Assembly (NCBI GenBank): GCA_021773395.1
Contig: JAJFKB010000001.1
Coordinates: forward strand, 65,955 to 129,954
Direction: 5' to 3'
Origin: Gammaproteobacteria bacterium
Lineage (GTDB): Bacteria; Pseudomonadota; Gammaproteobacteria; Pseudomonadales; IMCC2047
Length of the DNA: 64,000 nucleotides
In this document: piece after piece, positions 11,364 to 12,524 of the stretch
Layout: every line of letters begins with the position of its first letter
Position numbering within the stretch: position 1 is the first letter of the stretch
The notes under the pieces: generated by a model
Seen by the model: only the letters and a program-made list of their open reading frames with translations
Database searches by the model: none
Told to the model about the DNA's origin: nothing
Program-made: the position numbers and the translations under genes

Positions 11364-12524
11364 TTATCCGGGAAAATAAGCCATCGCTTTGAGCATTAAC
11401 AGCTGATGTGGGTGTGGCAATTCACTGACCGCTACGGTCGTTCGCGTAGGCCCGCTATAATCGAAATACTCACCATAGACCTGATTAAAAATCTCATAAT
11501 CCTTCATATTGATTAAAAATGCCTGAATCTCAACAATATCTTCGCGTTTCGCCCCGAAACTTTCGACAATATCAAAAAGATTATTCAGTGCCGCCTGCGT
11601 TTGACGCCGCATATCCAGCTTGGTTTGACCGTCCGCCCCCTGCACTACTCCAGGAAAGGTGTCGTCCTGCTGGCGTGCGCTGGTGCCGGACACCAGAATA
11701 AAATCACCCACTCTTTTGGCATGAGGGTAGTTACCCCGAGGCTTGGCCTTGTAGGGCAGCACCCTGTTTTCCATGTACAGTTCCCGGCGAATCTGCTCTG
11801 CATGATGCGTCAACCCGCCCATGTAACCTTCTATCTGCGCATTACTTAAAGATTTCACCTTTAGGGAAACGGAGAGCGCCGCCACCACATCGTTACGATC
11901 ATCATAGATCGGAACGGCAAGACAGGAAATATCATCAGCCAGCTCACCACAACTCAGCGCATAACCCTGCTGCACTATTACCCGCAACTGCTCAACCAAT
12001 GCCTCTCTGCTTGCAATGGTTTTCTCAGCAGCAGAATCAAAGACGATATCATCCAGCAGATAATCGAGCATTTTTGGCCGCAACCCCGCCAACAAAACTC
12101 GACCGGCGGCCGTGCAATAGGCTGGAAGCAGCTGATCCTCCAGCTGTGTCAACTCAACTGAGTGGGCACTTTTGCCAACCGCTATCTGAATTACCTTTTT
12201 ACCACTGAGCAACGAGACACTAACGCGTTCGGCAAACTGTGACGCCAATGCTTCTACATGGGGTTCAACCACATGCGTCATTAATTTGTTATGTTCTACT
12301 CGGCCGCCCAGCTCCGCCAGCAGGGTGCCCAATTGAAATCGATTATCACCGGTACGCGACACCACTCCTAAATTTTCAAGCGTAAGCAAAAAACGATGTG
12401 CCGTTGCCACCGTCATTTGAGTGCGCTGCGCCACCTCAGTTGCAGACAGGCGGCAGCCACCCGGAGAAAAAGCTTCCAGAATTTGAAACGCTTTTTGAAC
12501 CGAGGTATTTCTGGGAGTTGCCAT
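11364..12524 (-). CDS. IclR-family transcriptional regulator fused to a C-terminal RidA domain
   Basis: 386 aa. Residues about 1-250 are IclR-like ([11 protein letters not shown]...[10 protein letters not shown] HTH, then an effector domain). Residues about 255-386 are a full RidA domain paralogous to the 10291..10725 product. Confidence 0.8.
   Translation of the reverse strand: [386 protein letters not shown]

Follow-up and report, generated by a model that had tools for sequence, protein, structure and literature searches.

A rare IclR-type regulator fused to a 2-aminomuconate deaminase-type Rid domain beside a gammaproteobacterial amn cluster

Few small proteins are as widespread as those of the Rid family, which have been tied to gene regulation for decades (YabJ with PurR, names such as 'translation inhibitor') with no clear mechanism. 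In Bacillus subtilis, the YabJ gene accompanies purR, and the adenine response depends on YabJ. MocR/GabR regulators consist of a GntR helix-turn-helix (HTH) joined to an aminotransferase fold, and ArgR carries its winged HTH on a trimer-of-dimers core with the ligand at subunit interfaces. Here, we analyzed a gene for a 386-aa IclR-type regulator ending in a Rid domain (11364..12524, stop codon included) on a 64,000-nucleotide stretch of DNA from a gammaproteobacterium (contig JAJFKB010000001.1), this whole stretch being called the window; all features given below by window coordinates lie on its minus strand. The gene stands beside a cluster of 2-aminophenol 1,6-dioxygenase (amn) genes. We propose, with a probability of about 0.6, that its product acts as the pathway-specific regulator of this cluster and that its AmnD-derived domain senses 2-aminomuconate or a close relative.

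The fusion has in common with PurR and YabJ (PDB 1QD9, molecule name 'purine regulatory protein', Rid family) the functional tie between a Rid-family protein and a transcription regulator, but those are separate polypeptides with another regulator family, whereas the present protein joins the two covalently and has an AmnD-type Rid domain. The coupling of a DNA-binding domain to an enzyme-derived domain with a pathway metabolite as its ligand would follow the same logic as in MocR/GabR, although folds and families differ, and the expected hexamer with inter-subunit ligand sites would be similar to ArgR, again with different folds. Closer relatives are the IclR regulators PcaR, PcaU and PobR (Pseudomonas putida PcaR, PDB 8EJU/8EJV), which the fusion resembles in its winged HTH, linker helix and IclR_C domain, in conserved pocket positions and in its placement beside aromatic ring-cleavage genes, but to which it adds a 136-residue enzyme-derived domain found in no solved IclR structure. 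The classical amn/cnb clusters of Burkholderia xenovorans LB400 and pCNB1 use a MarR-type regulator, AmnR (PMC3790839), whose gene likewise lies next to amnJ-amnB-amnA but which belongs to an unrelated family and has no enzyme-derived domain. Because the classical clusters use AmnR, the IclR-AmnD protein would represent a non-orthologous alternative regulator. Altogether, the fusion is a rare, uncharacterised regulator of a known kind, the one-component regulators with an enzyme-derived sensory domain.

The literature full texts searched contained no description of an IclR-Rid fusion or of an IclR regulator of amn genes, in agreement with the initial annotation of this DNA, which knew of no characterised example. 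A paper on the ARO microcompartment reports IclR regulators adjoining amn genes in Actinobacteria and mentions no fusion (PMC10470539), and an IclR-Rid fusion is likewise not mentioned in a domain-architecture survey (PMC5882156). Database labels are generic, from 'IclR family transcriptional regulator C-terminal domain-containing protein' to the JGI names 'IclR.../enamine deaminase RidA' and '2-aminomuconate deaminase'.

The fusion protein and its AmnD-type Rid domain

The gene is a single open reading frame (ORF) with an ATG start, free of stops and frameshifts. The start is right, because the N terminus is conserved across the family (consensus MATPKNNSVxKAF). Three Pfam domains exceed their gathering scores: a winged HTH (HTH_IclR, PF09339) at residues 8-57 (12354..12503; 53.8 bits, cut-off 22, E 1.6e-14), the IclR_C effector domain (PF01614) at residues 82-246 (11787..12281; 107.5 bits, cut-off 24, E 7e-31) and Ribonuc_L-PSP (PF01042, Rid superfamily) at residues 261-382 (68.8 bits, cut-off 27.3, E 5.5e-19). 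This bears out the view of the initial annotation that an enzyme-derived Rid domain had been joined to an IclR protein. The parallel that it drew with a neighbouring stand-alone protein (10291..10725) also stands, with 51% identity and 74% positives over residues 252-385, no gaps and E 3e-51; identity to a second stand-alone Rid protein (10737..11123) is merely 26%, and the fused copy and these two make three Rid domains inside 2.2 kb, as had been counted. No solved chain spans both the IclR and the Rid halves in a Foldseek fold search.

The Rid domain (residues 251-386, 11367..11774) is complete, as had been claimed, but 'RidA' is not its proper name, since it scores 62.3 bits against the RidA subfamily model TIGR00004 of NCBIfam, under the cut-off of 106.25, as do the stand-alone AmnD and AmnJ of the window. 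Its best solved relative is 6IZH (E 2e-38, 131 residues, gapless; next match E 1e-13), to which it is 45-46% identical without gaps, and fitting the AlphaFold model of this domain onto 6IZH gives a template modelling score (TM) of 0.94-0.96 and a root-mean-square deviation of ~1.1 Å (Foldseek). As 6IZH is AmnE, the hexameric 2-aminomuconate deaminase of Pseudomonas sp. AP-3 (PMC6742747), the fused domain is, judged by sequence and modelled fold, of the AmnD/AmnE 2-aminomuconate deaminase type and no generic RidA. It is also the most conserved part of the fusion protein: mean column identity in the family alignment is 0.70 for the Rid part, 0.675 for the HTH and 0.55 for IclR_C, and identities to three orthologues (L001, L007 and L009) are 91, 85 and 76% in the Rid part and 75, 74 and 52% in the IclR part.

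The ligand cleft of AmnE lies between subunits and has been described with Ser35, Gly36, Glu88, Asn103, Arg117 and Lys135 (PMC6742747), AmnE residue n being fusion residue n+244. All these positions are matched in an alignment of 60 fusions, with S279 and G280 in 100%, E/D332 in 93%, N347 in 97%, R361 in 95% and K/R379 in 98% of the sequences, and the LPHP loop is matched as well. The active-site arginine, on which the initial annotation had left a question, is thus present as Arg361 (codon at 11442..11444; 57 of 60 fusions), the equivalent of AmnE Arg117 and of RidA Arg105, which binds the substrate carboxylate and is essential for imine/enamine deaminase activity (PMC4433059). Lys379, which is K or R in 59/60 fusions, corresponds to AmnE Lys135, where Escherichia coli RidA has Glu122.

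Comparison of 44 fused domains with 33 stand-alone AmnD-class proteins showed that nearly all conserved positions are common to the two sets. Three positions are conserved in both and yet differ, so that, apart from being fused to a DNA-binding protein, the domain is set apart from AmnD/AmnE by Glu133 to Met377, Leu130 to Gln374 and Ala28 to Val272 (AmnE to fusion), changes that are fixed in the fused clade. Position 377 (codon at 11394..11396), equivalent to RidA Glu120, is Met in 44/44 fused domains (59/60 in the larger alignment) and Glu in 33/33 stand-alone proteins. This glutamate is common to RidA and all of the Rid1-7 subfamilies (PMC4433059); the AmnJ and AmnD of the window retain the Arg and Glu pair, and only the fused copy has Arg with Met. 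The replacement marks what is probably a shift of function. Gln374 is found in 60/60 fusions at the position of AmnE Leu130, a part of the hydrophobic hexamer base that is formed in loop Lp3 by Val122, Leu125, Pro126, Pro128 and Leu130 (PMC6742747). Loop Lp3 is almost invariant in the fusions (LPHPHQ), with V366, L369, P370 and P372 kept and Leu130 replaced by Gln374, and the position of the hexamer contact Arg56 is variable.

In the IclR half, the recognition-helix motif T41-A-H43-R44-F45-L46-L-T48-L49-E50 is invariant or nearly so in the family, which predicts a conserved operator. The best NCBIfam match is the PcaR/PcaU/PobR subfamily (TIGR02431), but at 155.8 bits, under the cut-off of 284.75, the fusion is no member of it; P. 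putida PcaR and Thermotoga maritima IclR are the best fold matches, and TtgV is also matched. Mapping of the PcaR-succinate contacts (bioRxiv 10.1101/2023.07.27.550818) onto the fusion through a HMMER alignment placed PcaR T177, S178, S240, N257 and S259 at T138, A139, C201, S218 and S220, which are conserved in the family (S/T 98%, A 85%, C/S 90%, S/A 93% and S 93%, respectively). The ordinary IclR_C effector pocket thus seems maintained, and the protein probably carries two ligand sites, one in each half.

The two halves meet without a linker at residues 247-254 (11763..11786). In the AlphaFold2 (AF2) monomer model, which has good domains (predicted local distance difference test 86; predicted TM 0.56), the last IclR_C helix (228-250) passes straight into the first Rid strand (251-254), and in 60 full-length homologues the alignment has zero insertions or deletions between the end of IclR_C and the start of Rid. 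The in-frame methionine found here, Met251, had been taken in the initial annotation for the start codon of a once-separate gene. Its ATG is preceded by GGGAA 6 nt upstream (11763-11790) and the residue is kept in the seven closest homologues, which is what would be expected if an artefact or annotation error had joined two genes (iclR and amnD), or if the Rid domain were made separately from Met251. Nevertheless, the ORF is continuous in dozens of independent assemblies and complete genomes, the junction carries no indel, the modelled helix runs on into the Rid strand, and most of the family has V, T, S, I, G or F at position 251, with M only in the closest relatives and a few others. We consider such an artefact very improbable. 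Because the position is so variable, Met251 is poor evidence for a relic start codon, and this interpretation was rejected; internal initiation at Met251 giving a free Rid domain is conceivable for this clade alone, not as a feature of the family.

Relatives of the fusion and their loci

A search of 5.8 billion protein clusters recovered ~67 clusters at 90% identity, from NCBI, ENA, JGI and Logan assemblies, that share the three Pfam domains (385-400 aa; 35-81% full-length identity to the query), and exhaustive HMMER analysis of 1.84 billion representatives gave about nine or ten full-length clusters at 50% identity. The full-length fusion occurs in ~25 of 185,579 species genomes, all of them Alpha- or Gammaproteobacteria (Pseudomonadales, Thiotrichales, Steroidobacteraceae, Ectothiorhodospiraceae, Rhodospirillales, Sphingomonadales, Hyphomicrobiales and Rhodobacterales), and on 2 of 72,556 plasmids. 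The same continuous ORF recurs in these ~67 clusters, in complete genomes and in metagenome-assembled genomes (MAGs), one of which (L008) holds a 96%-identical partial copy on a contig covering residues 1-264 and so spans the junction independently. Since so many independent assemblies contain it, the fusion is genuine; it is also old and rare. The initial annotation had named a stop or frameshift at the junction, a C terminus failing to score as Rid and a widespread, already characterised architecture as findings that would speak against it, and the data show instead an open frame, a Rid-scoring C terminus and a three-domain architecture present in other genomes, rare and uncharacterised.

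With AmnJ as the root, a neighbor-joining (NJ) tree gathers all fused domains into one clade, next to that of AmnD/6IZH. With moderate support, the fused domain is placed as an old paralogue of AmnD and no recent copy of its neighbour; recent duplication of the neighbouring amnD was rejected, as the fused domains group together across taxa and not with their neighbours. A single old fusion event would be the simplest history, given the single NJ clade, a junction of fixed length and the invariance of Gln374 and Met377.

Neighbourhoods were compared at 34 loci with a complete fusion gene, by tblastn over 7-10 kb with the window proteins and with lower-pathway proteins from an Ensifer locus, and gene calls at individual loci agree with this comparison. 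An AmnB and/or AmnA homologue was found at 32/34 loci, a separate AmnD-class gene at 25/34, AmnJ at 14/34 and AmnC at 9/34 (e.g., Ensifer L004 and L020). Most loci showing no separate amnD end on the relevant side; where the region is visible, 25 of ~27 loci have this gene, the exceptions being L020 and L024. At L014, L016, L019 and L086, the fusion gene sits amid enzyme genes. At L020 (JAFEDS010000011), it follows amnJ and precedes amnB, stop and start codons overlapping, within an otherwise complete operon (amnJ-[fusion]-amnB-amnA-amnC-lower-pathway genes). Some fusion loci contain the meta-cleavage pathway in full; on the Ensifer adhaerens plasmid CP098810 (L004), for instance, it adjoins the fusion together with nitroreductase, DoxX and amidase genes. 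The fusion is also carried by the Novosphingobium humi plasmid CP117418 (L091), from a strain of military shooting-range soil, and these two plasmid loci hint at a link to nitroaromatic breakdown. Many alphaproteobacterial fusion loci also contain genes for a periplasmic binding protein, for a hydrolase resembling esterases and for an ABC transporter.

A sensor, an enzyme or a scaffold

We propose a model in which a single ancient fusion joined an IclR-type regulator, with PcaR as its nearest match, to a paralogue of 2-aminomuconate deaminase. The fused domain retains the fold of AmnD and, between subunits, its entire ligand cleft (Ser-Gly, Asn, Arg361 and Lys379), and could bind the labile enamine 2-aminomuconate, or 2-aminomuconic semialdehyde, or the product 4-oxalocrotonate, so that the bound intermediate would give the regulator a read-out of ring-cleavage flux. 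The signal would travel via the rigid helix-to-strand junction into the IclR module, whose own pocket is seemingly intact. Because Glu is changed to Met in the fused copies and a separate amnD almost always accompanies the fusion, the Rid domain would be mainly a sensor (a slow or dead enzyme) and not the pathway deaminase. Moreover, Rid clefts exist only between subunits, so the protein should trimerise or hexamerise, via a Rid trimer or an AmnE-like hexamer, probably with three IclR dimers on one core; given IclR dimerisation, a hexamer with three DNA-binding dimers would be the minimal closed assembly. The data show the architecture of the protein, its homologies, its conservation and its gene neighbourhood, whereas the ligand, its effect on DNA binding, the oligomeric state and the sign of regulation (repressor or activator) are matters of inference.

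The strongest competitor of this sensor model, though clearly the less probable of the two, is a bifunctional regulator-enzyme, in which the fused domain would be an active 2-aminomuconate deaminase that catalyses and regulates, like PutA or BirA. The catalytically essential Arg and the remaining cleft are retained, and E120A leaves the activity of Salmonella enterica RidA almost unchanged (PMC4433059), so that Met377 is no proof of lost catalysis. At L020 the fusion fills the amnD position with no separate amnD in view, L024 shows none either, and the embedding of the fusion gene among enzyme genes at four other loci is also in line with a catalytic role. In a stronger form of this proposal, the domain would turn the unstable enamine into 4-oxalocrotonate as the effector for its own IclR_C pocket; this stable dicarboxylate resembles the beta-ketoadipate/dicarboxylate effectors of PcaR, and the IclR part is closest to PcaR/PcaU/PobR with its pocket conserved. 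Against catalysis, the redundancy created by a separate AmnD-class gene at 25 of ~27 loci is unexpected for an enzyme, the glutamate universal in stand-alone AmnD is Met in every fused domain compared, and regulators are normally made in far fewer copies than catabolic enzymes. On balance, the retained cleft, the fixed Glu-to-Met and the near-constant separate amnD lean to a sensor, and the L020 operon leans to catalysis.

That the Rid domain could serve only as an oligomerisation scaffold, setting the trimer or hexamer state and binding no ligand, would suit the obligate trimers of Rid proteins and the hexamer of AmnE (PMC6742747), the rigid junction of the model and the almost invariant Lp3 loop, which forms the hexamer base in AmnE. 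We hold this to be improbable, as S279, G280, N347, R361 and K379, outside the trimer core, are 95-100% conserved although a pure scaffold needs none of them, and as the Rid domain is more constrained than the DNA-binding domain.

Several observations weigh against the sensor model beyond those that favour catalysis. The operator sites are phylogenetic footprints only, in an AT-rich region; the inter-domain arrangement in the AF2 model is uncertain (predicted TM 0.56); and bootstrap support for strict monophyly of the fused domains is 56/100 (138 columns). Furthermore, without amnC in the window, this locus may not yield 2-aminomuconate, and the actual ligand may be another compound.

A more speculative extension of the sensor model, to which we give rather low odds, is a new metabolite-sensing assembly with an AmnE-like trimer or hexamer core and three IclR dimers in an ArgR-like geometry, detecting an enamine too unstable for ordinary pockets. 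One way would be to trap the intermediate, with Glu-to-Met slowing hydrolysis; another, enzyme-coupled sensing, would be to convert it into a stable dicarboxylate that fills the adjacent IclR_C pocket; in a third, mixed oligomerisation with free AmnD would let enzyme level feed back on transcription.

With a Rid domain covalently and rigidly attached to a regulator, this family offers a clean system for testing Rid clefts as signal receivers, helped by the stronger constraint on the Rid domain and by one fixed active-site change. 2-Aminomuconate and its semialdehyde decay or cyclise to picolinate, and the family would show how a cell monitors a chemically unstable intermediate, unlike the monitoring of a stable substrate. 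Its interest would be greater if the domain senses the unstable enamine or couples catalysis to sensing. The fusion protein is, in addition, a candidate biosensor part for aminophenol or nitroaromatic breakdown, and the fusion serves as a marker for a group of truncated amnJDBA clusters from marine and soil Proteobacteria.

The amn cluster and predicted regulatory sites

Gene order in the window is [iclR::amnD-like]-terminator-like hairpin-amnJ-amnD-amnB-amnA-DUF1329. The AmnJ-like Rid protein (10737..11123, 128 aa) belongs to a second Rid class that keeps the Arg and the Glu, and it is 49.6% identical to a RidA-family gene product encoded between the MarR gene and cnbCb on pCNB1, the position of AmnJ/CnbJ in classical amnRJBACD clusters, AmnJ having been described there (PMC3790839). 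The next gene (10291..10725) encodes an AmnD-like stand-alone protein of 144 aa, of the 2-aminomuconate deaminase type, which is 61% identical to AmnE (6IZH) and is therefore an AmnD/AmnE orthologue. The beta and alpha subunits of 2-aminophenol 1,6-dioxygenase follow as amnB (9357..10277; 8IHG_A, E 2.5e-166) and amnA (8522..9340; 3VSG_A, E 4.7e-92). These matches of the downstream LigB pair to solved 2-aminophenol 1,6-dioxygenases uphold the guess of aminophenol chemistry made at the outset, and the AmnD-type domain of the regulator is, as had been suspected, a paralogue of an enzyme of the cluster that it probably regulates. By sequence comparison, the downstream genes are a true 2-aminophenol 1,6-dioxygenase cluster, amnJ-amnD-amnB-amnA. 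A gene for a DUF1329/LolA-like protein (7089..8426) lies 95 nt past amnA on the same strand and is syntenic in the gammaproteobacterial orthologues L001 and L007; it is possibly the last gene of the operon, and its product may be an uptake component for the substrate.

Within the 64-kb window, tblastn gave no match to AmnC, to the two FAA-hydrolase-type enzymes, to acetaldehyde dehydrogenase or to aldolase, nor to the nitroreductase, DoxX, amidase, PBP6 and Abhydrolase_3 of related loci, and the presence of a complete pathway in the window was rejected on the lack of amnC and lower meta-pathway genes. The short form amnJ-amnD-amnB-amnA(-DUF1329), 7089-11123 in the window, recurs in many fusion loci. 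Without AmnC, the semialdehyde itself may be the substrate of AmnD, or the cluster may have a role in nitrogen scavenging or in a detoxification avoiding picolinate formation.

Two footprints are predicted to be regulatory sites. The block GAATTCGGTTATTATC (12556..12571), 32-47 nt 5' of the fusion ATG, is retained in four gammaproteobacterial orthologues while its flanks diverge, and is a candidate -10 element and/or autoregulatory operator. Upstream of amnJ, the core TATTGATATTTAAG (11170-11183) is conserved in three orthologues and coincides with a candidate amnJDBA promoter (11154..11183), with -35 TTGATA (11181 to 11176), a 16-nt spacer and -10 TATAAA (11159 to 11154), which was read by eye and was not called by a strict promoter scan; an operator possibly overlaps this promoter. 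A repeat finder returned only weak AT-rich palindromes. The hairpin and T-run after the fusion gene (11222..11249) is terminator-like by consensus match only. A family-wide operator motif was abandoned, since the upstream regions of 33 fusion genes are too heterogeneous and many of the genes lie inside operons.

Other features of the loci can be mentioned. L001, the 81%-identical orthologous locus, has no amnJ-like gene (9174-9413), whereas L007 (78% identical) has one, so amnJ would have been gained or lost recently within the clade. At L086 (1543-2082), a MarR-type regulator, as in the classical clusters with AmnR, and the IclR-AmnD fusion occur at one locus, with amnJ-amnD and a gene for a TonB-dependent receptor alongside. 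No other regulator-Rid fusion was found among the best 150 representatives, and the other AmnD-type fusions there are enzyme-enzyme fusions. AmnD-type Rid fusions of other kinds include P0130 (873 aa), P0190 and P0253; an aldehyde dehydrogenase with three Rid repeats amounts to an AmnC-AmnD-like enzyme fusion with a covalent trimer, and another type combines ARD/cupin with Rid. A 669-aa fusion of a BPD_transp_2 permease with a LigB/AmnA-like part directly precedes the fusion regulator, with stop-start overlap, at L002 (5971-7980) and L087 (2273-4282), and such an ABC-permease and LigB/AmnA-like fusion protein also occurs in L011, L012 and L015. Finally, in five alphaproteobacterial loci (L003, L006, L027, L028 and L030), a flotillin-like gene (Band_7/Flot, ~600-690 aa) separates the amnJDBA-transporter operon from the fusion regulator and is transcribed with the regulator.

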